Assembly (NCBI GenBank): GCA_031550915.1
Contig: JAVBOF010000075.1
Coordinates: forward strand, 1-37,532
Length of the DNA: 37,532 nt
Direction: 5' to 3'
DNA from: Eubacteriales bacterium
GTDB taxonomy: Bacteria > Bacillota > Clostridia > Christensenellales > MGBC116941
The translations under genes and the position numbers were made by a program. The notes beneath the pieces are model-generated. The model ran no database searches and was not told where the DNA came from. It saw only the letters and a program-made list of their open reading frames with translations. Positions 20,388 to 36,878 of the stretch are shown piece after piece (position 1 is the first letter of the stretch; each line of letters begins with the position of its first letter).

Positions 20388-20888
20388 TTACTGTGCAACT
20401 GCTGTCAGTGCGTCAACAATATGGGCATCAAACTCCGTTCCAGCCCTCAGCGATAAATACTCCAACGCCTGAAAAGCGGGCCAGGCTTTTCTATACGGCC
20501 TGTCCGTTGTCAACGCATCAAAAACATCTGCCACGGCGATTATCCTTGCGCTAGTTGGTATCTGCTTATCGAAAAGCCCCGTATAGCCGCTGCCGTTCAG
20601 CCGTTCGTGATGGTACAGGGCGGCTTCTGCTGCCGCCCTGTGTATTTCATCGGGCATATTGGACAATATCAAATGCCCCATAGTGGTATGCCATTGGATT
20701 AATTTGTACTCGTCCTTCGTAAGCGCAGTAGGTTTATCGAGTAAGGCTGAGGGAATGCCCATCTTACCGATATCGTGAAACATTCCGGAAATGGTTATGA
20801 TAGCCGTATCCTTTTCGGATAAGCCAAGTTTTCCCGCAATCCTGCCTGATAGCTCGGATACATGCAAAGCGTGATCCAAGTCTACCAT
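20388..20888 (-). CDS. Stand-alone HD-GYP phosphodiesterase (GYT variant)
   Basis: H...FHDIGK, HTTMG, HHERLNGSGYT, ARIIAVADVFDALTTDRPYR. Confidence 0.92.
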   Translation of the reverse strand: MVDLDHALHVSELSGRIAGKLGLSEKDTAIITISGMFHDIGKMGIPSALLDKPTALTKDEYKLIQWHTTMGHLILSNMPDEIHRAAAEAALYHHERLNGSGYTGLFDKQIPTSARIIAVADVFDALTTDRPYRKAWPAFQALEYLSLRAGTEFDAHIVDALTAVAQ

Positions 20889-23800
20889 TACTTACTCTGC
20901 TTTCTTTTCCTGAATGTGCGGATAGCAAAGAACGATACGCCTCCCATAAGGATAATCACCACGCCTATGGCGATTAGGATATCGTATTTGTCCGTATCCA
21001 GCCCCAGCTTAACAAACGGAGAGTTTGGCACTTTAACGGAAAGGGGAACATCGATCGTGTTTTCATCCTTGACGGATATTTTCATGGGCGGTGCAGGGAA
21101 GAAGCCCTTTGGTACGACTTTTTCCTCCAGCCAATAGTTGCCTTTTGGGATATGTGATATAAGCATTTCGCCCTTGCTGTTGACCATGAGGGTTGTATCT
21201 TTGCCCTTCGGGTCATATCTGAAGCTTCCGTCTTTCTGCTTTGTAAAATGAAGCGTTTTGAATCCCAAGCCAAGGAATCCGTCCTTCTGCTTTATCTCGA
21301 AACCTGCGCCCGTCACTGGTTTGTCAGTCTTGGCGTGAACTTTGCACAGGTGGAAAGCCAGAGGGACGTTATATATCTCAACACTGAATGGATTGGATAT
21401 ACCGTTTTCATCCGTAAGACTAAACTTTACAGGAGAGAGGGCAGCATAACCAGCTTGCGGTACTTCAACAAGGGTATAGTTTGCTTTAGGCAGATACAGA
21501 ATACTGGCTTTACCGTCTATACCTGTAACAAACTCCGCTTTGCCGTCATCATTGGGAACATAGCTACCGTCATCCCTCTGTATCAGCTTTATTGGGTTAT
21601 TATCCGGGTCTAATAGGCGGAACGCAACCGCCATTGGATTCTTGGTGTAGCTGTCAGCCTTATATACCGTTAGCTTTGTCGGCTCATCCGTAATACCCGT
21701 TTGCCCTGTGATGCTGCCGTATGCGTCCACCGTAAAGCTGAATTGTGTCTGGTTAATGACGAATTGGGCAGGACAGTAGGATTCAAAGAAGGTATATGTC
21801 CCTGCGGGAATCTCAGCCATCGTGATAGTACCAGCTTCGGAGGTAAGGCCGGTATAGTATAATGTACCGTCTGATTGAAATATTTCGATTTTCGCTCCCG
21901 GTATGGGCTTGCCGTCCGTGATATCTGTCTTATTGAGCGTTACTTCATTGGGGGCGTTAGTGCGGGAGTATACTACGATGTCCGGCGAATCCTCGTTTAT
22001 TTTAATAACATCAACTTTATCTTCCAGCTTGAATCCTGTCGGCGGTGTTACCTCGTTGATTTGATAACCGTCCTTTGAATACGGCAACGGCAGCGATGTT
22101 GCAATGCCTTCCTTATTGGTTTTGAGAGTTGTTACAACAATACCGTCCTTTGTGCGAATCTCGAATATCGAACCTTCAAGAGGGCGGTTATTGTCCCTTG
22201 CGTCAGTCTTAATAACCCGAATCTGCTTTTTATGAAGCTTGTTTTTTATGGGTTTGTTGTCGTTTACATCGACGCTGATCTCATGCACTTTATCTCTGGC
22301 ATATTTAGCTTCAATATGGTACTTTGTGTCCGAAAGCTCGTAATCAGCATTTTTCGCAGCCAGTTCCTTCACATAGAATTTACCCAGCGGAATCTCCTTG
22401 GATATTTCCGCTATGCCTTGGGCGTTAGTTTCCATGATGCCCAAGAGGTCATTCTTACTCAAAACCACGCTGCCGTCCGCACCTCTAATGTCCTCATCGG
22501 CAAACAGACCGAATATGAAGCCATCACCGTTGATGTAGGAAAATTCGCATGTGGAAGGCGTGAATATCTCAGCATGTTTCTGGAGATTTATGCATACTTT
22601 CTGCCGTTCGTTTATGAGCTTTAAGCTTTCGGAAACAATGGGCGTATGCTGGTCTTTGTATTCCAAAGTAACTTCATACTCGGATTTATCAAGGACAAAT
22701 GGCTCAATGGTTTTTTTCTCTTTTACAATGTATGTCCCAAGATAAAGTTCTTTTGTCTTTGCCTTTGAATCACTGCCTGTGATAATGGTATCAATAACAT
22801 CGCCCTTCTTTGCGTGTACTATGCCGTCCGGCGTTTTGATATCATATTTAGCGATTACATCAAACTCTATGCCCGCCAAGCCTTGCTTTTTATATACAGG
22901 TACTCTTAGCTTGCCATACTTGGTATCACTTTCTTTAGCCCCAACAAGCATTTCGCCCTGCTTTTCTATGGTTATCGTGCCCTTAGCCGGGCTGTCAGTG
23001 CATTCCGCAACAAGGGTCTGCGCCGCTTGATCTTTTATTTCGAAGGGTATGGCATTTTCGTTTAACAAATACGAGTACGGCGATTCCAATTCATGTAAAG
23101 TATATTTGCCGTACGGCAACGGTTCAGGCAATGTCAGTGTTCCGCTGCCATCCGTTTCAAAAATGTCCAGAGTAACAGGCTGCGGATACTGTATATGCTG
23201 TTTAACAATATCGCCGGATGAATCCTTTATCTGAAACTTAGCCCCGGCGAGGGGAATAACTTTTCCGCTCTCCGCATCCACTTTTACTATTTTAAGATTT
23301 AATTCGATAGTGTCGTTTTCAAGTATAAATGGATATGTCCTGTTTTCCGCTGAAACGGAAACCTTAAATGGGGCTACCAGCTTTCTGCCCTCGTTCGCTG
23401 CACTTGGCAATTCTGTCACTATATATTCTCCGTAGGGCAGGAGCTTGGATATCCCAAAACCGTTTTCATCGGTCTTTATTTTGTCCAGTACTTCGCCGCT
23501 TAATATAAGCTTTACTTCAAACTCAACATCCTTAAGCGGCTCTTTTATGTTTTCGTTACCCTGCTCCGGCTCACCTGTAAGCGGTTTACTCGCAAACTTT
23601 ATTACGGAGATTTTACCCTCGACAACTTTGTTTTCTACGGTTTCAGATAACAGGGCGATTTCTTCATTTTGCTCGGCATAGGCAATGCGAAAAGGATATT
23701 CCTTTTGTGATAGGGTATATCCTCTTGGCGGGGTGATCTCTTTCAGAATATAGTCCGTTTCGATGGGAAGCTCCCCGCTCTGCACGCTGCGGCTGTTAGC

Positions 23801-25429
23801 GGGGCATTGCAGGGTTTCGATAAGAATGCCGCTTGTTGTGTATATTCCAAAGGTAGCGCCTGTCAAAGTCGCGTCACCCTGCGCTTTGTCAGCAGTGTCC
23901 TTATCCGCTTTCGTGACGGTTATTTTGCTTACCTGTGGTTTCTCAGGAATATCTACCCGCTCATATGCAATGGGCGTATATTGGTCTTCATAACCCAAGG
24001 CCACGGTATATGTCGTTGGATTCAAAACCATTTTTGAAGGCGCGGTTTTCTCTTTTACGGTATATGTATGGCCTATGGGGAGTTTCTTGCTCTCACCGTA
24101 ACCTGAAACGTTCGTTATAATGGTATCCACAATGGCGTTATCGGAATCCCTGACCTCAAATACCGCTCCTCCAAGTGAGTAGTTACCCATGCTTGGATTG
24201 CTGTTGCTCTTATACAGCTGGATAATGCCCTCGCCGCGCTGGTCAATTATATTTGCCGTTGTGGTTTGGCTGGATATTACCGGGACATTTACGTTATTTG
24301 TGTTCAAAAGATAATTTACCTTTGCCTGTATCTCCACCAATCGGTAATCCCCTGCAGGAAGGTCTGAGCATATTGCTTTTCCATCAGCGCCGATTGTAAG
24401 GGTATCCACCAAAACATTATCGCTGTCGTAAAGCTCGAATACCGCACCTTCCTGACTGCCGCCGTCACTGCCAACTTTTACAATTTCAAGATTACCCAAA
24501 GCATCAGTGGTCATATTCAAGTCTTTTGAAGCTGCAATCTCCATACCCTTGCCGACAAGAACAACATCCTGTTCATCGCTGTCGCTTGGAGTATAGTAGG
24601 CATAATTTGCCGCAACTCTGTCATCATAGCCTTTTGCTGTCAGGGTAATCTTCTTACCGGCATTTTGAGGCGCTGCGGGAATCTTTATCGTCAAGATATC
24701 TCCGCTATCTCCGGTAAAGCCCTCAACAATTGAACCTGTGGGAAGCTTTGTCTTATCAAGTGTATACCCGCCATGCATATTCGTAAGGGTGGCTTTTGTA
24801 GTTCCTTCAAAAAATGTGCCTGTTCCATCCTGAACCAGGGTTATGTTCGAAGGCGTGAATTTCACGGAATGGGTCAGTTTCTGCTGCGCCCGAGCAAGAT
24901 TTAACAGGTCTATTGCAAAGTCCCAAACGGCATCAGCCGAAGACGTACCTTTGGATCGCACTTGACCGGGATGATCTTTTAGGTTAGTGAAGCCATAAAA
25001 GCTGCCGTTAGGCGAACCCGTCTGCTCTGATAGCCAAAAGCGTACAGCGTTCGCCGTTGCATAACGCGCTTGGCTGGAGGATAAACCACCACTACCGTTT
25101 GGATAACCTCTTTCAAGTATTATTTGCAACCCTAATCTTGTTTTCGCTGAGTATTTTGTTGTCGGGTCATATTCCGTTGCAGAGCCATGAGGGCTGTTTT
25201 TAGCATGTTGCAGACAGTATGCCACAATCTCTGGGCTTGAACCGTCCACATAATGGTATGGTGTGTCCAGTGAATGCCAGCCGGAGTCGTTATGGTATTC
25301 AAAGTATTCCGTTGGTTCTTCCCTTGTATCAACATCCACTGTATTTGCTGCAAGTGCGTTTACAGGGAAAATGGAAAGGGATAAAAGAACAATCAACAGA
25401 ATTGCCAGAATCCTTCTTGTTTTGTTCAT
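20888..25429 (-). CDS. Large cell-surface adhesin: putative thioester domain plus SpaA/Cna-B isopeptide repeats
   Basis: Signal peptide, VAYCLQH motif, repeated KxD...GAxF...GxYxxxExxxPxGY units, C-terminal TM and basic tail. Confidence 0.9.
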   Translation of the reverse strand: MNKTRRILAILLIVLLSLSIFPVNALAANTVDVDTREEPTEYFEYHNDSGWHSLDTPYHYVDGSSPEIVAYCLQHAKNSPHGSATEYDPTTKYSAKTRLGLQIILERGYPNGSGGLSSSQARYATANAVRFWLSEQTGSPNGSFYGFTNLKDHPGQVRSKGTSSADAVWDFAIDLLNLARAQQKLTHSVKFTPSNITLVQDGTGTFFEGTTKATLTNMHGGYTLDKTKLPTGSIVEGFTGDSGDILTIKIPAAPQNAGKKITLTAKGYDDRVAANYAYYTPSDSDEQDVVLVGKGMEIAASKDLNMTTDALGNLEIVKVGSDGGSQEGAVFELYDSDNVLVDTLTIGADGKAICSDLPAGDYRLVEIQAKVNYLLNTNNVNVPVISSQTTTANIIDQRGEGIIQLYKSNSNPSMGNYSLGGAVFEVRDSDNAIVDTIITNVSGYGESKKLPIGHTYTVKEKTAPSKMVLNPTTYTVALGYEDQYTPIAYERVDIPEKPQVSKITVTKADKDTADKAQGDATLTGATFGIYTTSGILIETLQCPANSRSVQSGELPIETDYILKEITPPRGYTLSQKEYPFRIAYAEQNEEIALLSETVENKVVEGKISVIKFASKPLTGEPEQGNENIKEPLKDVEFEVKLILSGEVLDKIKTDENGFGISKLLPYGEYIVTELPSAANEGRKLVAPFKVSVSAENRTYPFILENDTIELNLKIVKVDAESGKVIPLAGAKFQIKDSSGDIVKQHIQYPQPVTLDIFETDGSGTLTLPEPLPYGKYTLHELESPYSYLLNENAIPFEIKDQAAQTLVAECTDSPAKGTITIEKQGEMLVGAKESDTKYGKLRVPVYKKQGLAGIEFDVIAKYDIKTPDGIVHAKKGDVIDTIITGSDSKAKTKELYLGTYIVKEKKTIEPFVLDKSEYEVTLEYKDQHTPIVSESLKLINERQKVCINLQKHAEIFTPSTCEFSYINGDGFIFGLFADEDIRGADGSVVLSKNDLLGIMETNAQGIAEISKEIPLGKFYVKELAAKNADYELSDTKYHIEAKYARDKVHEISVDVNDNKPIKNKLHKKQIRVIKTDARDNNRPLEGSIFEIRTKDGIVVTTLKTNKEGIATSLPLPYSKDGYQINEVTPPTGFKLEDKVDVIKINEDSPDIVVYSRTNAPNEVTLNKTDITDGKPIPGAKIEIFQSDGTLYYTGLTSEAGTITMAEIPAGTYTFFESYCPAQFVINQTQFSFTVDAYGSITGQTGITDEPTKLTVYKADSYTKNPMAVAFRLLDPDNNPIKLIQRDDGSYVPNDDGKAEFVTGIDGKASILYLPKANYTLVEVPQAGYAALSPVKFSLTDENGISNPFSVEIYNVPLAFHLCKVHAKTDKPVTGAGFEIKQKDGFLGLGFKTLHFTKQKDGSFRYDPKGKDTTLMVNSKGEMLISHIPKGNYWLEEKVVPKGFFPAPPMKISVKDENTIDVPLSVKVPNSPFVKLGLDTDKYDILIAIGVVIILMGGVSFFAIRTFRKRKQSK

Positions 25430-25459
25430 AAAAATATCAACCTCCTTTAATTTGGGTAC

Positions 25460-25482
25460 AAAAAAACACCGCGTTTGCGGTG
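25460..25482 (-). terminator. Intrinsic terminator just upstream of the adhesin RBS
   Basis: Minus strand CACCGC-AAAC-GCGGTG-TTTTTTT. Confidence 0.8.
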
Positions 25483-25515
25483 CTAAAAAGATGAAAATAT
25501 GCTTTTTATATCTAT

Positions 25516-26301
25516 CTATTCGATGCCTAGATCATCGTGCTGTGATGGAAGGGGCGCGATGATGACGAAATACATAACATCGTTTCTCCATGCAGCTCCT
25601 ATACCGAAATACTGGCGGTCAGGCAATAGAAAATCTGTAGTATGGGCTGTGGATGCCGCGCCTTCGTTGTATGCGGCATTCAAATCCTTGGTTAGCACTG
25701 TTCCTACGGTTTCGGAGAACATATTGTCAGAATGATCAGCCCTTCCATTGCCACGTTCAGCAAGCTTTTTAGCATGTACTGCGGCTATTTCATTCAGCTT
25801 AGGATGTGTCTTTGCTGGTTGAGCCCCATAGCATTCATCATCCTTGTATTGTTCATCAGAACCATAAAACTCACGGTATTCATTGATTCCGTCCATGATT
25901 GCTTGTATATATTTATCGCCCATCATGGTAATGACAGGGCTTATCGGGGTACTGATCTTTCCGCTGATTTTGCTATATCCACTTGCCTTATGTGACTTGC
26001 TTAGCGCCTTTATTTTGTAATAATATGACTTTTTGAGCTTCACCTTTTTGTCTACAAAACTCAATTTATTCGTTTCGCCAACCTTGGTATACCCGCTGCT
26101 TTTCTTTTCCGAACGGTATATCCTGTAAAGATACGCACCCTTTGATTTATCCCATGACACTTTAACATATTCTGCCGAGATTTTGACTTTGATACTCTTT
26201 GGCGAGGGAGGAGCATTTGAAGCCGCAAGCGCTGCGCTTGGAAAAAGAAATACGCTAATCAACATTAAAAGCGCAAAGCTAAACTTTATGCTTCTGTTCA
26301 T
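25516..26301 (-). CDS. Secreted fibronectin type III plus CAP/SCP-like domain protein
   Basis: Signal peptide; VSWDKSKGAYLYRIYRS...YYYKIKA (FN3); INEYR...LNEIAAVHAKKLA...HS...FGIG (CAP-like). Confidence 0.75.
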   Translation of the reverse strand: MNRSIKFSFALLMLISVFLFPSAALAASNAPPSPKSIKVKISAEYVKVSWDKSKGAYLYRIYRSEKKSSGYTKVGETNKLSFVDKKVKLKKSYYYKIKALSKSHKASGYSKISGKISTPISPVITMMGDKYIQAIMDGINEYREFYGSDEQYKDDECYGAQPAKTHPKLNEIAAVHAKKLAERGNGRADHSDNMFSETVGTVLTKDLNAAYNEGAASTAHTTDFLLPDRQYFGIGAAWRNDVMYFVIIAPLPSQHDDLGIE

Positions 26302-26339
26302 GCCGATACCTCCAAAAATGCTATGATTAATTTATTGGG

Positions 26340-26368
26340 AGCATAGCATGAACCTTAACATAGTTCAA
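26340..26368 (-). promoter_or_regulatory. Putative sigma-A promoter of the FN3-CAP gene
   Basis: TTGAAC-17 nt-TATGCT with an extended TG. Confidence 0.5.
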
Positions 26369-26426
26369 ACTTTTCTCTTTAACCCCTAATATATTTCTCA
26401 GTATTATTTATATCAGTCTTATTAGC

Positions 26427-26468
26427 CCGTAAAATTTCCGGTTCTTGAATCGTAAAATTTACGATTCA
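26427..26468. repeat. RepA_N-type iterons / putative replication origin
   Basis: Palindrome TGAATCGTAAAATTTACGATTCA (26446-26468) and a related copy CCGTAAAATTTCCGG 23 bp away, at the end of repA_N. Confidence 0.65.
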
Positions 26469-26821
26469 GGCGAAACAGGCATAGGAGGCCGCATATGGCA
26501 TATAAAAATTAGATTTGGCTTGCCTAGCCCTTGCCGTATTTCATCAATAAGCTGTATACTCTGAAGCTCACGAAAGGCTTTTGTGCATGTCTTGTCGGAT
26601 ATGTTCAATAGCTGCTGGATATCCAAACGGGTAAAGATCAAATAGATCTCACCGTATACGTTTACCCAGCCGTTTTGCTTAGAAAGGTACATCCGGTCAA
26701 GCAGCAGAGCATATAGCATCTTAGCGTCATTTGACAGAACGTCATAGGGCGGTACAAACAGGTCTTTGGGCAGCATGATATAGCTGTGGGTATTGCTTTC
26801 AGTTATTTTATATCTGCTCAC
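26459..26821 (-). CDS. repA: Replication initiator A N-terminal domain (RepA_N) protein, short or truncated
   Basis: LPKDLF...LSNDAKMLYALLLDRMYLSKQNGWV...IYLIFT...RQGLGKPNLIF. Confidence 0.85.
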   Translation of the reverse strand: MSRYKITESNTHSYIMLPKDLFVPPYDVLSNDAKMLYALLLDRMYLSKQNGWVNVYGEIYLIFTRLDIQQLLNISDKTCTKAFRELQSIQLIDEIRQGLGKPNLIFICHMRPPMPVSPES

Positions 26822-26950
26822 ATAGTATTTTCCTCCTTATCTTTAATTATATTAGTCCTCCTAATCTTCTTTCAGCCTTTCAAGCATTATCCGCTTGTGC
26901 TTGCGTTGTTCGCTATCCAAGGGGTCAAAGTTTTCAAGGAAACAAGCGTA

Positions 26951-27091
26951 CTATACCCTTGTACAGATTTGGCAAGCCCTCCTGTCCTTGCGCTTATATA
27001 GCTCCTTATATTTCTTGGGTATACGCTTGCCCGGCAAATGCTTACAGCAATCAATGCACCTTCCCGTGCTAACAAACAAAATCGTATCCAT
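26951..27091 (-). CDS. Small Cys-rich basic ORF (CxxC...CxxC)
   Basis: Strong RBS AGGAGG, CIDC and CQIC; the frame stays open for 29 more codons past the TAG. Confidence 0.5.
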   Translation of the reverse strand: MDTILFVSTGRCIDCCKHLPGKRIPKKYKELYKRKDRRACQICTRV

Positions 27092-27115
27092 ATAAAAACC
27101 TCCTTTGGGAGAAAT

Positions 27116-27135
27116 AAAAAAACGGCTACTTGCCG
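27116..27135 (-). terminator. Intrinsic terminator after ardA
   Basis: Minus strand CGGC-AAGTA-GCCG-TTTTTTT. Confidence 0.55.
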
Positions 27136-27152
27136 CATAACATTGAGAAATA

Positions 27153-27869
27153 TTATCTTTCAAATCCTCTGCTTTTTGGTTTTACTTTTTTCAATTCATT
27201 GCAATTAGGCTGCCTTCCATCAAAAATATCTTTGTTCAGCTGGCGTCCGAGTTTTTCTTTTGAAATCGCAAACACCTTGTATTCGTCTGGAACATTGATT
27301 CCATCATAATTTTCTTGAAACGTATTACCATTGCTTCGGATATATCCCTTCTCGGTAAACGTCCCACCGTCATCAAGGCGAATGTCGCATCCGAATCTTT
27401 CATAATCAATATAAGTTGATAAATTACCCATGTCTTTTGTATCGTAGCAGCCGCTTTCCTCAATCCAAAAATATCCAAGAGCATATTCGTCTTCGATACC
27501 ATCAATATAATCAAAACAGTCGAGATTATCTGTGAGATTAATAAGGTCTTTTAAACTGCCACAGTATTCACCTTTTGAAATTGCCGCTTCATAAGCCTGA
27601 ATCTCGTAATTTGACATATTATCTAGCTTAGAAGAAAGATAATTGAGTTCATCTATGCTGGCATATTCACTTAATAGTTTATAGATCCCATCTATCTCTG
27701 TTTCATAGTCAGTTATAAAGAATTCCTCATATCTGGCACCATCGATACCGATTCTTCGGAAAGTCTGCTTTAGGTCTTCCTTTGTAGTCGGAAAACTGTG
27801 CCATTCGCCAACGAGTTTCCCTTCTACATATTTACCTAAATTAGTAATATATGCGCTGATTATTGACAT
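27153..27869 (-). CDS. ardA: Antirestriction protein ArdA
   Basis: AYITNLGKYVEGKLVGEW, YEEFFITDYE, EYASIDELNYL, YIDYERFGCD; very acidic. Confidence 0.93.
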   Translation of the reverse strand: MSIISAYITNLGKYVEGKLVGEWHSFPTTKEDLKQTFRRIGIDGARYEEFFITDYETEIDGIYKLLSEYASIDELNYLSSKLDNMSNYEIQAYEAAISKGEYCGSLKDLINLTDNLDCFDYIDGIEDEYALGYFWIEESGCYDTKDMGNLSTYIDYERFGCDIRLDDGGTFTEKGYIRSNGNTFQENYDGINVPDEYKVFAISKEKLGRQLNKDIFDGRQPNCNELKKVKPKSRGFER

Positions 27870-27950
27870 TGATATCACTTCCTTTCAAAGTTTGTTAATG
27901 CAATAGCAAAGCGTTAGATTTGAACTCGTTTCAAGTTCTCAATTAAACTA

Positions 27951-28991
27951 TTAAATATTAGGCTGATTTGATTTGTTGTTTGCGTTAATCTCCTGCCTGT
28001 TACGGTGCTGCAAATAGAAATCAAGGGCTTTTTGTGTAATTGCAATCCGCTTTTCTTCCGGCATTTCGGGATTGAAATACCGTTCTGTAGCTTTCTCTAA
28101 TCCTAAAGCATAGCTTATCTTTTTTGTTGCTTCCTTTGGTGTAACGCCTCTGCCGAAATACTGCTTTATAGACGAAAAGTTTATCTTCGGGAATTCGTTT
28201 GAGTTCCTGTTCATCATTATTTCTTCCATGCTATCCTTGTCCAGCTTGCCCATTTCACTGAGTTTCCGCATTTCTGACGCTTGCTGTTGTGATGGGGGAA
28301 GTAACCCTTTTTCATTTCCGTCACCAGTAAGCAGCGACAACAAATCCTCCTGATTTTGTTTCGGTAGATAGGATAGCTCAACGGATGGAATAAACTTAAT
28401 CCGCCCTTCGTCTACCATATCAAGAAGCGGAGGAATCAGCTCGGTTAGGCGTATATAGCGGGATATTTGGTTTCTACTTTCACCACTTTGGTCAGCGACA
28501 ATATCTCTGGATTGCTTGCCATCATAATTCGGCCCAACTTGGGCTGAATTCTTTGAGGGCCTTCCAGCCTGCCGTTTTATAGCTTCCAGCTTCATCTTAT
28601 ATGCAAAGGCTTTCTCGCTTAAAAGTATGTTTTGCCTCTGCCCGTCAAGGTTCGTATCAACCATCATCACAATGGCGGTTTCGTTATCAACATCTTTTAC
28701 AATAGCTGGAACAAAGGCAAACTCATTTGCCCTCGCTCCTTCAAAACGCCTATGCCCCGCAATGATTTGATATCTGCCCTCATGTTCCGGATTTGGGCGT
28801 AATATGAGGGGTGACAATATCCCATGCTCCTTTATGGTCTGCGCCATTTCATCTATATTATTTATCTTAAATGGATGATGGGGGAAATGGTCTATAAAAG
28901 AAACATCTATGTTTTCTATGGTTTCTTTCGCTTTACTTGGCTCGGTTGGCTCAAAAAAGTCAACGGGTTTGATCTCTAGTTTTTTTGCCAC
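27951..28991 (-). CDS. parB: ParB/RepB/Spo0J family partition protein
   Basis: IKEHGILSPL, IIAGHRR, SEKAFAYKMKLEAIKRQAGR, QISRYIRLTELIP; GTG at 28991 fits the RBS best. Confidence 0.93.
   Translation of the reverse strand: MAKKLEIKPVDFFEPTEPSKAKETIENIDVSFIDHFPHHPFKINNIDEMAQTIKEHGILSPLILRPNPEHEGRYQIIAGHRRFEGARANEFAFVPAIVKDVDNETAIVMMVDTNLDGQRQNILLSEKAFAYKMKLEAIKRQAGRPSKNSAQVGPNYDGKQSRDIVADQSGESRNQISRYIRLTELIPPLLDMVDEGRIKFIPSVELSYLPKQNQEDLLSLLTGDGNEKGLLPPSQQQASEMRKLSEMGKLDKDSMEEIMMNRNSNEFPKINFSSIKQYFGRGVTPKEATKKISYALGLEKATERYFNPEMPEEKRIAITQKALDFYLQHRNRQEINANNKSNQPNI
28526..28550. promoter_or_regulatory. 25-bp palindrome inside parB, candidate parS
   Basis: AATTCGGCCCAACTTGGGCTGAATT, near-perfect inverted repeat. 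Confidence 0.5.
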
Positions 28992-29769
28992 AATCAACCG
29001 CCTCCTTTGTAAAGTCTCTGAACGCTTCTGTCAGCTTTCCGTTTGGATCGTATTCGTATATGCTCTTTCCCGCAACAACAGCTTCCTTTGCCTTAACGGA
29101 AAAGGGAATCATGGTTTTATATATTTTGAAATACCCGCCGCAGGATACCCGAAGGTTTTCAATCATTTTCCTTGCAAGCCTTGTTCTGGTATCGGCCATA
29201 TTTACCACGATCCCGTCGATTTTAAGGTTCGGGTTTATATTCTTTTTTACTCTGTTTATGGATTTTGTCAGCATCTCCAAGCCTTTTTGAGAAAGATATT
29301 CCGCTTGTACAGGTATAATTACGCTATCCGCTGCCACAAGGGAATTGACAGTAAGAAATCCCAAGGATGGCATTGAATCAATTAATATGTAGTCATAGTC
29401 CTCTTGGATTTCGCTTAATATATCCTTCAGCACCGATTCCCTTGAAAGTACATTTACCAAAGCTGGTTCTATACCTGAAAGCTGGATGTTAGATGGTATA
29501 AAATCAACACCCTGCGATTGCATAAGGTATTCACGAACATCCAATGGCTCATCGTTTATGGATTTCAGCATTGCGTCCGATATGGTATTTTTGAGTTCGT
29601 CCGGCTTTTGATATCCAAGGCATGTTGTGAGATTTCCCTGCGGGTCAAAGTCACAAAGTGCAACTTTGTACCCCATATTGGCAAGACCTACGCCTAAATT
29701 ATGGCTAACCGTTGTCTTTCCGACTCCGCCTTTTTGATTGGCTATAGCGATGGTTTTACATTTTTGCAT
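28960..29769 (-). CDS. parA: ParA/Soj family ATPase
   Basis: IAIANQKGGVGKTT, DFDPQGNLT, DYILIDSMPSLG, IIPVQAEY. Confidence 0.95.
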   Translation of the reverse strand: MQKCKTIAIANQKGGVGKTTVSHNLGVGLANMGYKVALCDFDPQGNLTTCLGYQKPDELKNTISDAMLKSINDEPLDVREYLMQSQGVDFIPSNIQLSGIEPALVNVLSRESVLKDILSEIQEDYDYILIDSMPSLGFLTVNSLVAADSVIIPVQAEYLSQKGLEMLTKSINRVKKNINPNLKIDGIVVNMADTRTRLARKMIENLRVSCGGYFKIYKTMIPFSVKAKEAVVAGKSIYEYDPNGKLTEAFRDFTKEAVDCGKKTRDQTR

Positions 29770-29844
29770 TGTAATGCTCCTTTTCAAGAAAATAGAATAA
29801 GCAAAATACCGGATTAAAACGCTTGTAAAGTGTAGAAAGCGGAT

Positions 29845-29873
29845 AGTTATTTGGGCTTTACGCCGATTTAACT
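29845..29873. other. Candidate attachment site (ICE right junction)
   Basis: Imperfect inverted repeat AGTTATTTGGGC-TTTAC-GCCGATTTAACT (9/12) centred where the cotJC-like coding sequence begins. Confidence 0.5.
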
Positions 29874-30143
29874 GAGGATATGGCGGCGGAGCAGAAGGCG
29901 AGGGCCGCTTACGAAAGGATACTTGATTTGACGGATGACCCGGATGTACGCGGGCCGATAAAGTTCTTACGTGAAAGGGAAGTGGTCCATTTCCAGCGTT
30001 TTGGTGAGCTGCTTAATGAGGTGCAGGGGATATTTGGCATCAGCTGCAACAAGATGATGGATATGAGGAACTATAAAGGTATGGTGGATAAAAACGCCTG
30101 CGGCATGGCCCAATATGGAATGCAAAGAGCAAGAGGAAGATAA
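29862..30143 (+). pseudogene. cotJC: 3' half of a CotJC/manganese catalase family spore-coat gene, interrupted
   Basis: ADLTEDMAAEQKARAAYERILDLTDDPDVRGPIKFLREREVVHFQRFGE matches the CotJC C-terminal half; similarity starts upstream of the ATG at 29880 and stops abruptly at ~29861. Confidence 0.85.
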
Positions 30144-30244
30144 GGGCATTTCTTGGCAAACGGCAACCGCCCGGACTACGTTAAAGGGCTGGGCTTAAAC
30201 ACTAGCAAGGAAAGCGCTATTACAGTAAATCGATGAATAACGCC

Positions 30245-30280
30245 GGCTGGCTCCGTTGTTAAATGGAGCCAGTCTGTTTT
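30245..30280 (+). terminator. Intrinsic terminator downstream of cotJC
   Basis: GGCTGGCTCCGTT...AATGGAGCCAGTC-TGTTTT. Confidence 0.7.
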
Positions 30281-30366
30281 AATTTGAATACGCGGATAAT
30301 TATTACAAAGTATATAACCATGAATAAGAATCCCGGCTTTGCTCACGTTTTCAGATATATGCCGAA

Positions 30367-30651
30367 ATGCACTGGTCTAAGCGCAAGAGGCTGGCTGAGC
30401 AGTGGCATTACATTGTGCGTGACGCGCTGAAAAAGGCTGGAGTGCCAAAGAATGTATTCCACAAGCCTGCTGAGGTTTGCATATACGTGAACAGCCGTAT
30501 GGACCGCGACAACCACAGCTATCTTTTGAAACTCATAATAGACGGGCTGAAAGGTCACGTTATCGAGGACGATTTGCGCAAGTATGTCCGGCGCACAAGC
30601 ATAGAGCTATACGGCGGCAAAGATATTTTAGTTAGTGTACAGGAGGTATAA
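30367..30651 (+). CDS. RusA-like Holliday junction resolvase, phage-type, probably 5'-truncated
   Basis: HWSKRK, DRDN..LLKLIIDGLKGHVIEDD (DxDN...K...D...DD); upstream in-frame QIYAE has no start or RBS. Confidence 0.65.
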   Translation: MHWSKRKRLAEQWHYIVRDALKKAGVPKNVFHKPAEVCIYVNSRMDRDNHSYLLKLIIDGLKGHVIEDDLRKYVRRTSIELYGGKDILVSVQEV

Positions 30652-30687
30652 GGGGTGGCGGCTAAAAAGCAATATTGCAAAGTAAAC

Positions 30688-30711
30688 AAAAAATGCGCCC
30701 GGAAGGACGCA
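30688..30711 (-). terminator. Intrinsic terminator of the zinc-ribbon gene
   Basis: Minus strand TGCGTCC-TTCC-GGGCGCA-TTTTTT. Confidence 0.7.
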
Positions 30712-30729
30712 CTTAATATCAAAAATTAT

Positions 30730-30999
30730 TTATCTTTGATTTGTAAAACAATCGCTGCAATAAATCGGTCGATCGTTTCTCGGTTGGAAAGGGATCTGGC
30801 AACTTACTCCACACGCTGCGCATGTTGCGTTGTACATCTCTCTCTGTTGCCTTCCGCTGCTTTTACGCATGTCGCGGCATGGTTTGCATCTTTGGGGCTC
30901 ATTTGTAAATCCCTTTTCGGCGAAAAAATCTTGTTCGCTTGCCGTGAAAACGAATTCCTGACCACAGTCTTTGCAAGTAATGTTTTTGTCCTGATTCAA
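30730..30999 (-). CDS. Zinc-ribbon protein (zf-trcl plus CxxC-x17-CxxC domain)
   Basis: CKDCGQEFVFTASEQDFFAEKGFTNEPQRCKPCR and CAACG...IPFQPRNDRPIYCSDCF. Confidence 0.9.
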   Translation of the reverse strand: MNQDKNITCKDCGQEFVFTASEQDFFAEKGFTNEPQRCKPCRDMRKSSGRQQREMYNATCAACGVSCQIPFQPRNDRPIYCSDCFTNQR

Positions 31000-31049
31000 T
31001 TAGAATACCTCGTTTAATAAATTATGCCTTTGTTGCGGCATTGATTATA

Positions 31050-31078
31050 ATAATACACGGAATGTACTTCGAAGTCAA
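31050..31078 (-). promoter_or_regulatory. Putative sigma-A promoter of the zinc-ribbon gene
   Basis: TTGACT-17 nt-TATTAT. Confidence 0.6.
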
Positions 31079-31131
31079 ATTTTATTGGTATTGAAGTGGA
31101 GACATCTTGGATAAAACCTAGTACAGCAATT

Positions 31132-31170
31132 AAAACAATAACCGCCTGATGTTGGCGCAGCAAGCGGCTA
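31132..31170 (-). terminator. Probable terminator of the SDR gene
   Basis: Minus strand TAGCCGCTTG...CAGGCGGTTA-TTGTTTT. Confidence 0.55.
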
Positions 31171-31245
31171 TACCGTATGTTGTATCTGGATGCCTTGGTT
31201 ATATACAATATGCGGGAGGTTTACACATTTTTTAGGCACTAACAA

Positions 31246-31965
31246 CTAAAACAGTTTTGTATAGATAGAATTAGGTAGCCTCTTTAATATGAAAGCAATT
31301 AACGCCCACCTTTTCGTTATATATACTGATTTCTTTTTTGAATTAATTGCTTTATATATTTGATGACCCGCTACGGATACAGGCGTCACCCAAAACAGCC
31401 CATCGCCCTGTGCCATAGCGGTATCCATAAATCCAGGCTTTATATCTGTAATAGAAATATTGGCTCCTCTCTTTTTCACTTTACATTGCATACCTTCCAG
31501 ATAATTTGATATAAAAGACTTTGAAGCATTATAGGCAGGGCACTCGGAGCTTCCTCTAAGTGAAGCAATTGACGAAATAACAGCAAGATGGCCGCTTCCC
31601 TTTAATTGAAAATAATTCACGGATGTGCAAATCAGTGATGTCACGCCTGTAACATTTGTATTTATCGTCTCTAATTCCAAATTCCATTCCAGTTCCTTAT
31701 TCGTATATCCGGTTCCAGAACTAATAACGATTAAGTCAACTCCGCCCATCTCAGTAATAAGATCTTCTAATTGCAATTTAGATATCTTGCAATCAGTTAT
31801 GTCCATGTATTTTACAATCGAATCAAAAGGAAGGTTTGATTTCAGTTCTTCAAGCAATTCAATACGTCTTCCCGTTAGTCCAAGCAAAATTTTATCTTTT
31901 GAAAACTGTTTTGCAAGTTCTTTTCCTATCCCGCTGCTTGCACCAATGATAATTGCTTTTATCAT
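31246..31965 (-). CDS. Short-chain dehydrogenase/reductase
   Basis: IIGASSGIG, ISS, YNASK, IKPGFMDT; start at MIKAII. Confidence 0.92.
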   Translation of the reverse strand: MIKAIIIGASSGIGKELAKQFSKDKILLGLTGRRIELLEELKSNLPFDSIVKYMDITDCKISKLQLEDLITEMGGVDLIVISSGTGYTNKELEWNLELETINTNVTGVTSLICTSVNYFQLKGSGHLAVISSIASLRGSSECPAYNASKSFISNYLEGMQCKVKKRGANISITDIKPGFMDTAMAQGDGLFWVTPVSVAGHQIYKAINSKKKSVYITKRWALIAFILKRLPNSIYTKLF

Positions 31966-32170
31966 ATATACACATCCTAATATATACGTTATAATCGCGG
32001 TATTCCAGTACCGCAATGGTTTTCGCTCCGGTATGGGTTATTGGAATAATCTACTTATACAGATATCATACTTGTTTACGTCAATAAATCAATATGATCA
32101 TTATCCAAATACATATGCAATAGAGCTAGTAGATTATTTATAATTGGCAAAATGCAGTCGAAAAGAGAGA

Positions 32171-32531
32171 ATGAGTGAGTATTCGTTAGCAGGGGTGGTT
32201 AGGGGTTACTGCGGATGAGCTTTTGAAGAATTATCTATCCAAAAAAAGTAGTTCTATGACTATTGATTATGGAGCACTTGTCAATAATGACTCAAAAGTT
32301 AAAGAAAAAATAAATGATGAACTTGGTACTATGACCAAGTTCATGCAAAGTAATTCCAGTAAGTTTGGTACGAGTTATAAGAATGTTAACTCTACCAATT
32401 GGAACAAAATAACAAGCGTATCAACTAATTCTATGAAATTTGCTTTGAATAAACATCATTTTAGATTATCTGCAAGAGTCAAAAAAATCAGACCAAAAGT
32501 GCTTGATACAACCCGAAGACCGGGCGGTTTA
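32171..32531 (+). pseudogene. Degenerate Rhs-locus remnant (possible toxin-tip fragment joined to 25 bp of Rhs core)
   Basis: 32507-32531 is identical to the Rhs core at 2945-2969 and 5292-5316; preceded by a start-less frame (TADELLKNYLSKK...). Confidence 0.55.
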
Positions 32532-32564
32532 AAATGGTTTCGAGGAAGCCAAGCGGTTTAAGAG

Positions 32565-33530
32565 TTACTCACTCTTTCGCTGATACAACGATTGTGGGCT
32601 AACCACCTCGTCCACTATGAATACAGGACGGTTGCGTGAAGCATCGAGTGTACGCCAAAGGTATTCAGCAATAATGCCTAAAGAAAGGTTTGTAAGCCCA
32701 AACCCGATGAGTATAATGCTAATTAGAGTGGGCCAGCCCGCCTGATAAGGAAATATATTAAATATCTTTACTACTAAAGTATGTAATGCGACTATAAAGC
32801 CTATTATTGCAAATACAATTCCCAAAATGCTTACAAATCTTATGGGTGCAAATGAAAAAGCAACAAACGAATCTATAAACATCTTTATCTTTTTGGATAG
32901 CACCCATTTTGATTGACCCTTTGTACGGGCTGCGTAATCAACATCGATTATCGCACATTTAAATCCGAGATTAATTATTTGCAAAATAATTGATGAATTA
33001 GCTTCAATATGTGTATTAAGATGATCTTTAATCTTATTATTAAACATTACATTATTGACACCCTTTTGGGGATAGTATGGAATTGCAAATCGCCTTATTG
33101 CTTTCGAATAAATACTTGAAGTAATGCGGGCGAACCCGGAGACATTCACTTCTCTCTTTTGAGCGCATACAAGATCATGGCCTTCTAATATCTTCTCATA
33201 CATTTCGCTTACCATGCTCAAGGGTTCCTGCATGTCAGCACCCATAAATACACATACCGGCGCGGATGCATTGAGTAATCCTGCGCGCGTTGCCGCATGC
33301 GATCCGAAATTTCTGGAGAGTTTGACCAGTTTAATTGTAAAATTACTAATTTTTTGGTTTTCCAATACCTCTATAGACCTATCAGTAGAACCATCATCAA
33401 CAAAAACCACCTCAATATTATACTCTTTTTGAGAAGCGAAAATTTCCAAACATTTGCAAAGAGGCTCAATGTTCTCTTCTTCATTTAGGAAAGAAATAAT
33501 TATAGATAGGTCCGGATACATAAACTCCAC
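32565..33530 (-). CDS. Glycosyltransferase family 2 (GtrB/DPM1-like, polyprenol-phosphate type)
   Basis: FVDDGSTD, LSRNFGSH, ADMQEP, two C-terminal TMs, EYLWR...RNRPVFIV. Confidence 0.92.
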   Translation of the reverse strand: MEFMYPDLSIIISFLNEEENIEPLCKCLEIFASQKEYNIEVVFVDDGSTDRSIEVLENQKISNFTIKLVKLSRNFGSHAATRAGLLNASAPVCVFMGADMQEPLSMVSEMYEKILEGHDLVCAQKREVNVSGFARITSSIYSKAIRRFAIPYYPQKGVNNVMFNNKIKDHLNTHIEANSSIILQIINLGFKCAIIDVDYAARTKGQSKWVLSKKIKMFIDSFVAFSFAPIRFVSILGIVFAIIGFIVALHTLVVKIFNIFPYQAGWPTLISIILIGFGLTNLSLGIIAEYLWRTLDASRNRPVFIVDEVVSPQSLYQRKSE

Positions 33531-33542
33531 CTCAGATTCTAA

Positions 33543-34436
33543 TTATCTTATACTCTTAATATGGTTTAAAAATCTATCGTGTTGAATAGCAAAATTTCCA
33601 CTCACATGCTGTCCTTCATTAACATCTGTCGTAACAACTGATCCAAGCGAAATACGAGCCCAATCGCCTATCCTCTGGTGGGATACAGTTGAACCAGGGC
33701 CAACCATCACATTATCGCCAAATATTGCGGAACCGCAAATTACAGATCCCGCAATAATAAAACAATTTTTGCCCGTTTTACATGCATGGGATATATGTGT
33801 GAGATTATCAATTTTAGTTCCATTTCCCAAAATGGTATTATCCCACGTAAAAACTGCTTTATCGACACAGGTATTATAGCCTATTTCTACTTTTTTACCT
33901 ATAACGACTCCGCCACAATGTGTAACCGACAATATGTCGTTGTTTTCAAGCCTCTTATATTCAAATCCCTCTCCGCCAATTACGACCCCTGCCCTTATAT
34001 TGACATCAGCTCCAATTGAGACGTCCTCTTTTATACTAACAAATTCTTCTATAATGCAATTTTGTCCTATGTTTACATTAAATGGAGCAATATATGCCAA
34101 AGGGCTAATAATAGCGCTTTCGTGGATAAATGTGGGTTTCTTATCTCTCCTGTAGCTTTTTTCCTGGCAAAGAATATTATGCAAATTAAAGAAATCAGTT
34201 CTTGGATTTGCCGTTACTGCAATTCCAATATCATCTCTATTTATTTTTTTAAGCAGTTTATCAGTACAAAAAATGCAAGAAATGCTTTCGTTATCATCTA
34301 TTTCATTTAAGTATTTTTCATCTTCAATAAAAGTAAGTGATTTTGTAGGTGCTTTTAACTTGCTCATTGTAAGTGCAAAAAACGCGCCGTCTTTAATAAG
34401 TTTCATATCCTTTTGAAGCCATTCCGACAAAAACAT
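33543..34436 (-). CDS. LpxD-like hexapeptide-repeat acyltransferase
   Basis: Hexapeptide repeats, IGGEGF, HCGGVVIG, TKIDNLTHISH. Confidence 0.85.
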   Translation of the reverse strand: MFLSEWLQKDMKLIKDGAFFALTMSKLKAPTKSLTFIEDEKYLNEIDDNESISCIFCTDKLLKKINRDDIGIAVTANPRTDFFNLHNILCQEKSYRRDKKPTFIHESAIISPLAYIAPFNVNIGQNCIIEEFVSIKEDVSIGADVNIRAGVVIGGEGFEYKRLENNDILSVTHCGGVVIGKKVEIGYNTCVDKAVFTWDNTILGNGTKIDNLTHISHACKTGKNCFIIAGSVICGSAIFGDNVMVGPGSTVSHQRIGDWARISLGSVVTTDVNEGQHVSGNFAIQHDRFLNHIKSIR

Positions 34437-34450
34437 CTAATCACCCCATC

Positions 34451-35176
34451 CTATAAATTTATTTCTGAAATATGCTTGAATTCATATTTCCTTTGCTTCG
34501 CCAAATTAATTAAATTATGGAAAAATGAACGAGTCCCAATTTTTTTATTATCACATACATATTTTATAAGCTCCTTATACTCATAAAATGAACTCCTTGC
34601 GGATTCATATCGTAATGCAGTTTCTGTATTTAAAAAAATATGTATTGGGTGAAAATCAAAAACCTTTATACAATTCTTCTTATCTAGATAAACTTCTGGC
34701 AAAGGCTTGTTTTTATCGCTAAAATACACATCATCTTCATAAAAATGCGGTAATTTGATTGTATCAAAAAAATACTTATAAGGCTTCAAATCCATACCGG
34801 CATCAATTGGTATATAAGTGTTCAAATCATATTTAATCCCCTTGCCGGCCATGTATTTAACTATTAGTGAACTATTAAACAAAGCATGTGATCTAGTACT
34901 AACCGCTTCAGGAACCAATTCAAGTAAATCATCTATTATTTTAGTGTAACTTCTAATCTCTTTTAACTCCATCAATCCATTAAAGTTTGGATGAATGCCT
35001 AATTCAAATAAATTATTTTTTCTTAGTTCATAAATAAACTTTGTTTCATGTGTTACAAAAAAAGTTGCTTTTATATTAGCTTTGATCAAAAGATCACAAG
35101 TATATTCAATCACTTCGTCTGACGCCCAATCCATATCAAATGTTAAGTATATATCGTTGTCCCATTTTTGATCCAT
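34451..35176 (-). CDS. Polysaccharide deacetylase family protein (WbmS-like)
   Basis: LTFDMDWA, ATFFVTH, ELGIHPNF, RSH, FDFHPIH. Confidence 0.8.
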   Translation of the reverse strand: MDQKWDNDIYLTFDMDWASDEVIEYTCDLLIKANIKATFFVTHETKFIYELRKNNLFELGIHPNFNGLMELKEIRSYTKIIDDLLELVPEAVSTRSHALFNSSLIVKYMAGKGIKYDLNTYIPIDAGMDLKPYKYFFDTIKLPHFYEDDVYFSDKNKPLPEVYLDKKNCIKVFDFHPIHIFLNTETALRYESARSSFYEYKELIKYVCDNKKIGTRSFFHNLINLAKQRKYEFKHISEINL

Positions 35177-35297
35177 GATTATAAAAGACCTCTTACTTAA
35201 ATTAAAATCCGTTTTGTTAGTATATCATAAAATTTATTTTTTGTATAAAAACTCATTATAAATCTTCAGGACAATCGCAAAATTTAGCAATTTGGGG

Positions 35298-35500
35298 TGA
35301 TGCAACCGAATTGCAGTACAGCGGAAAAGTCTGGTTCAGCAGAAAAGGAGAGGTACCTATATCAAAATATGAGGCAGTTTTAAAAAAGAAATCGTCAGGT
35401 TTGTATAACGAGGGCGGATGAAATGCAAAGAGACTGGCTAATGAAGTCGGCGTGCATGAGGACACAAGGTACAACGGGTGGCGCAACAACAAGAAGATAC
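35298..35500 (+). mobile_element. Degenerate IS3-family left end and orfA relic
   Basis: TG-starting IR-like stretch, RBS AAGGAG, broken frames reading SKYE..FKKEIVR/LYNEGG*NAKRLANEVGVHEDTRYN (HTH transposase-like). Confidence 0.55.
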
Positions 35501-35776
35501 TATCGGTCAATCTAAGGGGCCGTTTACGCGTGGTCATGATTGAGGTGGCGGGTCCGTGGGTTTTTTCCTTTCTACTACAGATTTAGAAGGATATATGCAA
35601 ATGCAGAATAAATGATTTATTTCGATCCGTTATGAAAAAACTTGAAACCCAGATGAATATGAATCTAGTATCATGTTGCATTCTCAGAAATTTAGAAAGA
35701 ATTGATCCGACAATGAGAATATCGACAAAAATAATTGCTTGCCGATTTGTGGTAATAAGTAATTCAATGGCGATGG

Positions 35777-36511
35777 CTAATGGTCTCGTTCTTTTTTTTC
35801 GTAACAGATTGAAAAGCAATTATATGCAAATATTCCATAATCCTGGATTGTGTTGATCAATTCAACCAGATATCCGTTAGATATACAATCCCATATCTCT
35901 GAAAGATAATTGGTCGCACTGAAGAGATTACTCGTCATGTAATATGCGGTGCATACTTTTTCCACGATTAGGCCTTCAATACAATCGTTTAGCGAAATGA
36001 ATACATTGTTGCCGACTTCGTTATATAATAGTCTAAAATACTGTGAAAACTCCTTTATATATTTTTCTAAATCATTTTCTTTCGCAGCCACAAGCATATT
36101 CATTATGTTTGCATTCATATCTTGAAACAGTGTTGAATCTTTTTTCAAGCTTTTGTTATCTCTGAAACTATTTTGGAGAATGATAACTACTTGCGTATCG
36201 ATCGCTGTGCCTAATACAAATACTTCATACATTTTTTCATAGCCCAAAATCGTTGACCAAGCGGTAGCTTCTTCAGCTATTCTGTTTCTTTTTGTTATCC
36301 TCGTTCCTTGCGATGTGCGTGATTCAAGAACCCCCAGATAAGTAAGTGTCTTGACAGCCTCTCTGACAGAGGTTCTGCTGACACTAAATCTCTCCGCAAG
36401 TTCCTGTTCCGTAGGGATTTTTTCGCTTTGCTTATATGTTCCATCCGCAATCATTTTGCGGATCTCGTTCATAAGCTGTTCTACTATTGTCTTTTGTCTT
36501 ATATCCGTCAT
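35777..36511 (-). CDS. GntR/FadR family transcriptional regulator
   Basis: IPTEQELAERFSVSRTSVREAVKTLTYLGVLE..SQGT. Confidence 0.92.
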   Translation of the reverse strand: MTDIRQKTIVEQLMNEIRKMIADGTYKQSEKIPTEQELAERFSVSRTSVREAVKTLTYLGVLESRTSQGTRITKRNRIAEEATAWSTILGYEKMYEVFVLGTAIDTQVVIILQNSFRDNKSLKKDSTLFQDMNANIMNMLVAAKENDLEKYIKEFSQYFRLLYNEVGNNVFISLNDCIEGLIVEKVCTAYYMTSNLFSATNYLSEIWDCISNGYLVELINTIQDYGIFAYNCFSICYEKKERDH

Positions 36512-36720
36512 AATCAGGATTCACCTTACCTAAAAATTATTGAGTTTGCAAGTGTTTATACTTTCTAGTTTGTTTATCATATAAAAGACATGGTATCACA
36601 ATATAATTGTATTTTGCAAATCTTTCTTAATAGATATACTTTAGAAGACATTTTCAAGTAATAACTTAAGAACTAATATTCTTTTATATAGTAATTTATA
36701 CAAAATATATTAAAAAGTGC

Positions 36721-36749
36721 TTGACAAAAAAAGAGACATAGACTATCTT
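36721..36749 (+). promoter_or_regulatory. Putative sigma-A promoter of the SDR gene
   Basis: TTGACA-17 nt-TATCTT in the AT-rich divergent intergenic region. Confidence 0.55.
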
Positions 36750-36878
36750 TATACTATAAAACATATTCTTTATCATACAAAGATATAAAACACTTTCCAA
36801 ACTTATTTTGACCTGAATACTAATGGTGTACTCTTTTAATCTTTCTCTGAATTAAAAATTATTTTGAGGTAATTGCAG

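Follow-up and report, generated by a model that had tools for sequence, protein, structure and literature searches.

Mother-cell sporulation genes can carry mobile or formerly mobile elements, the described cases including skin (in sigK, with SpoIVCA) and SPbeta (in spsM, with SprA/SprB) of Bacillus subtilis as well as vfbin (spoVFB), vrin (spoVR), gin (gerE), and yin (yabG) (PMC4191935; PMC5595907; PMC10747680). These systems have both gene halves, a serine recombinase at the element end, a directionality factor, and excision shown during sporulation. In a published example (Suzuki et al., 2019; PMC6957869), an ICEBs1 chimera furnished with the recombination unit of SPbeta inserts into spsM, which shows such units to be swappable between prophages and conjugative elements. 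The spore-coat gene cotJC is likewise already in print as an integration target, in a passage of a preprint that cites Abe et al. (2013) (bioRxiv 10.1101/2021.11.22.469490); a literature search on cotJC with intervening elements or prophage integration found no study of such an element.

The locus compared with these systems here lies on a contig of 37,532 nt (C108), the whole of which was analyzed and is called the window. It belongs to a metagenome-derived bin of 2.02 Mb in 179 contigs (G000; G, C, and L numbers denote genomes, contigs, and loci), with an estimated completeness of 85.6%; contigs of mobile DNA often escape binning. The GC content is 40.6% for the window contig vs. 44.5% for the bin, and the junction region was found in one public run only, an invertebrate gut metagenome that is possibly the source sample (X1). 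The host organism is probably a spore former because Spo0A and SpoIVA are both encoded in the bin. Two full-length Spo0A-like genes are present (C133:2271-2582 and C92:5402-5713) with a mutual identity of only 43%, reflecting either a paralogue or a bin that mixes two spore formers.

In the window, a conjugative element with a type IV secretion system (5715–29769, all genes on the minus strand) abuts the 3′ part of cotJC, the element's parA end meeting the spore-coat gene at codon ~132, with 92 nt between this point and the parA ATG. A sporulation-gene frame is interrupted, as in skin and SPbeta, at one junction (29862 against the parA end); the locus differs from that type in having one junction only, in that a recombinase and a 5′ half were not found, and in being conjugative rather than prophage-like. 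The cotJC stump is most likely a recent remnant and not a working excision switch. The features on which the comparison rests are as follows.

1 to 5570, plus strand: array of RHS and beta-propeller toxin genes beyond the sortase end of the element (two ORFs match the TIGR03696 Rhs core, 4e-22; a 300-nt stretch is repeated at 96% identity).
5715 to 27878, minus strand: element body, from a Pfam scan and the gene order of G192 and G371 (27–53% protein identity).
27951 to 28997, minus strand: parB (Pfam ParB_N, 3.2e-18).
28960 to 29769, minus strand: parA, terminal gene of the element (Pfam AAA_31, 6.6e-59; CbiA; ParA).
29770 to 29861, minus strand: spacer of 92 nt between parA and the break, with a parA ribosome site and, in a promoter scan, no promoter-like parA site.
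29845 to 29873, no strand: junction and candidate recombination site, an imperfect inverted repeat across the break 29861/29862.
29862 to 30143, plus strand: 3′ stump of cotJC (Mn-catalase spore-coat gene), the last ~93 codons and stop, from PF05067, homology start, and conserved columns.
30245 to 30274, plus strand: intrinsic terminator 3′ of the cotJC stump, a 13-pair stem with 7 G-C pairs and then a T run.
30367 to 30651, plus strand: RusA-like resolvase gene, N-terminally truncated (phrog_4632, E 1.2e-8, residues 2–86 on profile 49–150/171).
32507 to 32605, plus strand: isolated RHS-core island and an element-end-like stretch (25-nt exact match; 84% identity to C97:4094-4168).

The first-pass annotation of this DNA had described a CotJC/Mn-catalase frame that starts abruptly at ADLTEDMAAEQKAR, about 90 bp from the parA start, runs uninterrupted to its stop and terminator, and has its junction in an imperfect inverted repeat, and these observations were borne out. 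Frame +3 reads G, stop, and LFGLY up to the break and ADLTEDMAAEQKAR after it, where homology to cotJC opens mid-gene; an in-frame TAG stands upstream of the break at 29844–29846, and the stump frame is open up to its stop at 30141–30143. Residues 4–63 of the 98-aa frame match positions 139–198 of the 284-position Pfam Mn_catalase profile (PF05067; E 4.2e-15; 55.9 bits vs. a cut-off of 27), and such partial cover indicates a fragment of a family member, not a whole gene. With 10–11 full-length CotJC proteins of relatives (190–210 aa), both BLAST and tblastn alignments open at base 29862, which corresponds to homologue residue 128–132; ~127–131 codons, about two thirds of the gene, are therefore absent. 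An alignment of 59 distinct homologue segments has 28 columns conserved at ≥90%, and in 27 of these the stump carries the majority residue. No decay is visible in the stump, and every ORF of the element is long and uninterrupted, so any loss must be recent, or nothing has been lost.

With the parA ATG at 29769, preceded by an AAGGAG ribosome site, the spacer between gene and break measures 92 nt; the longest parA frame opens at a TTG at 29787, from which it would be 75 nt. The arms of the inverted repeat (29845–29856 and 29862–29873) are 12 nt each, complementary at 9 of 12 positions, and separated by a 5-nt spacer. In the same repeat search, a score of at least 9/12 was reached at 2.6% of all window positions, and since the arm length was picked after the repeat had been seen, the repeat is modest evidence. 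The break falls in the most conserved coding stretch of cotJC, 24 nt from a proven hot spot, and no repeat able to mislead an assembler was found at the junction.

The transfer set of the element was recognized by Pfam (Relaxase, 5.2e-37; T4SS-DNA_transf, 4.1e-59; AAA_10/TraG P-loop; PrgI, 1.9e-26; TrbC; NlpC/P60; and, weakly, TrbL_2). From the parB side, the body encodes ArdA, RepA_N, a TED-SpaA adhesin (1513 aa), HD, DUF3991-Toprim, a kinase, NikA, and a MobA/VirD2 relaxase, and after the relaxase DUF3801, the VirD4 coupling protein, Fic, TrbC-like and VirB6-like proteins, an MNT/HepT pair, PrgI, VirB4, NlpC/P60, and a sortase. Cargo within the transfer region consists of the MNT/HepT toxin-antitoxin pair, the Fic protein, a Ser/Thr-kinase-like protein, and an HD-domain protein (10899–11511, 12873–13655, 17868–18719, and 20388–20888). 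The element's own sortase (5715–6362) and its 1513-aa thioester-domain/SpaA-repeat surface adhesin (20888–25429) presumably serve mating-pair contact. The "complete ICE" of the earlier interpretation is not confirmed by the contig: Resolvase, Recombinase, and Phage_integrase domains are absent by Pfam from its 42 ORFs, and neither an integrase nor a second att end was found on it, the single candidate end being at 29861. On the other side of the element, no direct repeat or att-like core was detected, the sole long-range exact repeat being a 25-nt RHS-core island, and a palindromic serine-recombinase att core is not enriched in the window (three matches vs. 1.8 expected).

The backbone of the element is frequent in the order: ParA of this family occurs at E ≤ 1e-60 in 40 of 400 other genomes (43–55% identity). 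In addition, a ParA scan of the genome contigs gave five loci, the best at 45% identity. No close copy of the element for comparison of the junction was found in the genome contigs or in IMG/VR, where ParA matches extended over only 20 residues and a 25-nt stretch of the element arm had no exact match. The backbone is colinear with the elements of G192 and G371, in which parA is the end gene too. The G192 element has the same backbone and gene order as the window, with parA at its end, but carries a Tn916-like tyrosine integrase and is inserted in the 3′ part of lysS; the integrase lies ~10 kb beyond NlpC, and a displaced tRNA_bind fragment is found at the integrase end with a DUF4379 protein. 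Because a tyrosine integrase and lysS are used in G192 and serine recombinases elsewhere (G371 and G315, the latter with a serine recombinase directly upstream of parA), the element family swaps integration modules. Related elements measure 47–55 kb and have their integrase 10–20 kb beyond NlpC/sortase, whereas the window has only 5.7 kb of unrelated RHS DNA there. The relatives inserted in lysS are those of G192 (L060–L062) and G061 (L051), and in G192, a complete lysS with the tRNA_bind domain adjoins the parA end.

As ways of checking its proposal, the first-pass annotation had named a cotJC 5′ half with cotJA/cotJB, a recombinase at the far end, and another intact cotJC, and the search for these parts came back empty. 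No cotJC 5′ half is present in the 29.8 kb of contig upstream or in the 85.6%-complete assembly, where tblastn with 10 full-length CotJC proteins reached only position 29862 onward; the stump is the sole Mn_catalase match of the assembly. CotJB was absent from the assembly at E ≤ 0.1, and tblastn with cotJA and cotJB of three relatives gave nothing below E 0.2. At the places occupied by cotJABC in G002, G039, and G001, the bin's own contigs C48, C20, and C73 run through without cotJABC, in a comparison where cotJABC synteny among the three relatives is itself only partial. In housekeeping genes, G000 is about equally far from all three (~40–66%). The far side of the element holds the RHS array, with no recombinase gene anywhere on the contig. 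The assembly contains one large serine recombinase, on a 5-kb contig with sigma, XRE, and Mob genes (C55), and the bin has two tyrosine recombinases in other contexts, on C1 and C129. C55 was considered as the missing recombinase end and rejected, its enzyme being 25–27% identical to the cotJC-type recombinases and having a sigma-factor gene next to it, not cotJC. A comparison of the contigs of run X1 with positions 20000–37532 showed no joints among the results listed, the loose ends listed being in the parA P-loop region or near 37.1 kb; since contigs cannot show rare excised forms, this comparison is neutral on excision. An independent contig set of the same run holds 97% of the sampled 31-mers of 29300–30500.

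Searches for the uninterrupted form of the gene covered metagenomes and protein collections. An intact same-species cotJC, which would mark an empty site, was not found among the best 80 of 448 metagenome relatives (the best being 82% identical over the conserved 56 residues), and none of these 80 carries the stump's own tail. The best longer form among 5.8 billion proteins was 85% identical over 59% of the query, and a search for proteins of near length returned an 87-aa product on the window contig only. The closest CotJC relatives of the stump (80–85% over ~56 aa) come from other families, and two genomes of the same family are 62% and 42–44% identical to it; 56 residues are too few for placing its origin, the difference between 75% and 85% identity amounting to a few residues. 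The genes flanking the stump are shared with none of the cotJ loci of G001, G002, and G039, the 80 metagenome loci, or the seven IMG/VR loci, so that no native context was found among these.

Within the order, cotJC is very often found split. Among 400 other genomes, sampled evenly, 118 have a match to a full-length CotJC, and the gene is split in at least ~30 of these 118 cotJC-bearing species representatives, roughly one in four or more. Three hot spots account for the breaks, namely residues ~24–28, residues ~62–66, and the AAEQ core, with at least 21 genomes broken at residue ~62–66 (three of them ambiguous, near contig ends) and one further at ~24; in G122, G097, and G071, both cotJC pieces lie on one contig, 7–8 kb apart. 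A scan of IMG/VR with the stump gave seven proviral contigs, in six of which CotJC homology starts at residue 62–70 and in one at residue 29; in three of the seven, serine recombinase genes of two kinds (504–510 aa) end just upstream of the CotJC part. The best 80 of the 448 metagenome loci, which are not independent because many come from the same few species, comprise 29 that are full-length, 1 starting from residue 17, 10 from ~28–30, 36 from ~59–65, and 4 cut by contig ends, and serine recombinase genes adjoin the stump in 15 of them. When 3′ matches were collected from 109 other genomes, ten stumps started 6–8 codons after the window's first residue, at the recombinase core, and G000 alone started at residue 1 with a short frame, barring one contig-end case. 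No second break at the window's own site was seen among the 109 genomes, the best 80 metagenome loci, or the seven IMG/VR loci.

Six elements at the AAEQ site were read at both junctions (G371, 54.8 kb; G300, 34.1 kb; G268, 19.6 kb; G023, ~10.8 kb; G163, ~10.6 kb; and G344, ~6.9 kb). The crossover core GCAGCNGA is common to all six and lies in codons A-A-E of EDMAAEQ; since its phase relative to the codons does not differ between attL and attR, an exact crossover would rebuild the cotJC frame. The recombinases of these elements (~510–570 aa) are encoded next to attR or attL and have Resolvase, Recombinase, Zn_ribbon_recom, and DUF4368 domains. In G371, the core GCAGCCGA occurs in the same codon phase at both junctions of an element of 54,766 nt inside cotJC (C2:273043-328661; L156+L145+L144). 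The genes there follow each other on one strand in the order cotJB, cotJC 5′ part, a 1005-aa phosphoesterase, ParA, ParB, adhesin, Toprim, relaxase, VirD4, TrbC, VirB6, PrgI, VirB4, NlpC/P60, sortase, 19.5 kb of cargo, a 538-aa serine recombinase, cotJC 3′ part, and spoIIE, the cargo opening directly after the sortase on the opposite strand. G371 carries this element, so a natural conjugative element that splits cotJC exists. In the chimeric ICEBs1, too, a conjugative element sits in a sporulation gene by way of a serine recombinase unit, but that chimera was engineered, whereas the elements of G371 and the window are natural. As a side observation, the large serine recombinase beside the 3′ half in G371 is of the DUF4368 type; among the cargo genes are those for MazF, sigma factors, DUF6034, DUF6119, and an ABC transporter.

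The G371 element shares the window's backbone (27–53% identity), the same target gene, and the same conserved stretch (..EDMAAEQKAR). It and the other AAEQ-site elements differ from the window in that both gene halves and a recombinase are present and in that they cross over at the core GCAGCNGA, 24 nt further downstream than the break in the window. These 24 nt of cotJC upstream of the core are kept in the window, with only synonymous differences from G039, so the window stump cannot be an attR of the AAEQ class. The gene that lies against the stump in the window is parA, not a recombinase. Orientation differs as well: the window element is antisense to cotJC with its parA end against the 3′ half, whereas that of G371 is co-oriented with its parA side towards the 5′ half. 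Positions 29862–29910 of the stump resemble a whole attB for AAEQ-site serine recombinases (core, 24 nt to its left, and the full right arm), and the stump could, to judge by this resemblance, be a landing site for such elements.

Both sides of the element in the window are occupied by DNA of other kinds. Beyond the sortase, after 145 nt, a convergent RHS/propeller array stands where the cotJC 5′ half would be expected if the element ended there. The propeller genes of the array have paralogues at 91–98% nucleotide identity on a chromosomal contig with housekeeping genes (C37), near leuS and ychF, and the left end of the window contig falls inside a repeated propeller gene common to C37, a typical assembly break. 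The array is made up of a pair of beta-propeller (SBBP-like) genes, an RHS core ending in a C-terminal tip, a pair of small ORFs that match no family and are possible immunity genes, and an orphan core-tip that is 96% identical to the first core-tip over 300 nt. An exact 25-nt RHS-core sequence, coding for YNPKTGRF, occurs three times (2945–2969, 5292–5316, and 32507–32531), the third copy being an island between unrelated DNA, 27 kb from the array and 2.6 kb outside the parA end of the element. With the array on one side and this island on the other, the block 5571–32506 is bracketed by RHS DNA.

On the cotJC side, the RusA-like gene is a second gene stump, ~220 nt 3′ of the cotJC stop and lacking its first ~48 codons; a 120-aa ORF without a family match follows it (30367–31017 for the two), and the pair suggests a phage remnant. 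At 32531–32605, a stretch of 75 nt is 84% identical to C97:4094-4168, where the copy falls within the terminal part of a YjbR-like ORF, immediately upstream of a parA gene of which only the first ~21 codons are left; from these two settings, the stretch has the appearance of an end of a different element, mostly deleted, that was inserted at two different targets. A variant contig in run X1 shows 32 differing positions and 2 indels within 30418–30585 and is then identical up to 31932; of the 34 differences listed for it, two are at 31933 and 31961.

The locus is probably an irreversibly broken remnant of an insertion, whether the far end was lost after the insertion, a deletion created the junction, or the gene fragment was imported with the element. 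The element, or the ancestor of the DNA block, probably entered cotJC by recombination at the short inverted repeat in the conserved ADL..AAEQKAR stretch, the same stretch that related elements use 24 nt further on with a large serine recombinase, and its far end would later have been lost or the block moved; as a variant, the junction may have been made by deletion and never have been an att site. The position in a conserved stretch, the inverted repeat, the undecayed stump, and the intact element genes fit a real integration event. The gene is most likely broken for good because there is no recombinase, an RHS array lies at the other side and an RHS remnant opposite, a RusA-like stump follows, and cotJA, cotJB, and the 5′ half are missing. 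The stump (perhaps with the RusA-like stump and the genes to ~32.5 kb) might instead have arrived together with the element out of a previous host whose cotJC the element occupied; in this special case of a remnant, the matching 5′ half was never at this locus in G000. This is in keeping with the block between RHS sequences that share an exact 25-mer, with the absence of cotJABC from three syntenic places and from the assembly, and with the closest CotJC relatives being in other families, but the 56 residues compared are too few, G000 stands at much the same distance from each of the three relatives in its housekeeping genes, no mechanism for moving the block is visible, and no recombinase lies inside it; this origin is very unlikely. 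That the junction 29861/29862 joins two molecules or strains, or that the contig is foreign to the genome, is extremely unlikely: a metagenome bin of 179 contigs, the GC difference, the two divergent Spo0A-like genes, and the variant contig in the same run could be taken as signs of it, but the independent X1 contig set carries the junction region at 97% of sampled 31-mers, there is no misleading repeat at the junction, and the high identity of the propeller genes links the contig with C37, which is also in this bin.

The main rival to a broken remnant is a complete element that runs off the left end of the contig with the RHS array as cargo, so that a recombinase and cotJA-cotJB-cotJC 5′ half lie beyond and excision would restore cotJC; once circular, the element would have a recombinase gene that reads through attP into parA, as is the case for G371 and G315. 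The same-family 54.8-kb element of G371, which splits cotJC with its core in phase at both junctions, speaks for this reading, as do the five further genomes with the same core in phase and the ICEBs1 chimera in spsM (PMC6957869). The undecayed stump, the inverted repeat at the junction, the lack of a promoter-like parA site in the 92-nt spacer, which fits transcription from across an att site, and a host with Spo0A and SpoIVA are also in its favor. In G371, too, the cargo begins immediately behind the sortase and on the other strand, so the array could be cargo; the contig breaks off in a propeller repeat, and the assembly is incomplete. The assembly nonetheless lacks the 5′ half, cotJA, cotJB, and a matching recombinase; an RHS-core remnant 2.6 kb outside the parA end is unexpected if the array is cargo, and the array's propeller paralogues stand beside leuS on C37. 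The break is 24 nt off the known crossover, in the opposite orientation to G371, and has no second example, and cotJC is not known to be needed for spore formation in B. subtilis. A complete element beyond the contig end is on this balance unlikely. It is distinctly unlikely that the element is, in addition, a complete member of a cotJC-targeting conjugative lineage with a new site 24 nt upstream and in the opposite orientation, excised in the mother cell and tied to sporulation, perhaps with transfer or loss of the element tied to it as well.

Taken alone, the window locus, where a conjugative element has cut a spore-coat gene, most likely leads no further. Of the earlier proposal, the splitting of cotJC by a conjugative element is supported in general, by the G371 element and by the recurrent use of the gene as a landing site of serine-recombinase elements. 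For the window the proposal is not supported: as far as the data reach, the 5′ half and a recombinase are missing, which the first-pass annotation had named as refuting it, the break lies off the crossover, and RHS DNA occupies the far side. In an order of mostly gut-associated spore formers, cotJC breaks at three precise places with serine recombinase genes at the joints, and in at least one genome, G371, a full conjugative element lies between in-phase cotJC halves; loci of the G371 type, not the window, are the place to test the switch idea. If cotJC elements exit the chromosome during sporulation as skin and SPbeta do, timed gene repair would, among anaerobic gut bacteria, be far commoner than the few examples from Bacillus and Clostridium suggest, and conjugative transfer could then be coupled to developmentally timed repair of cotJC. 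In three genomes of the order (G311, G135, and G158), cotJC is apparently split at two sites simultaneously.
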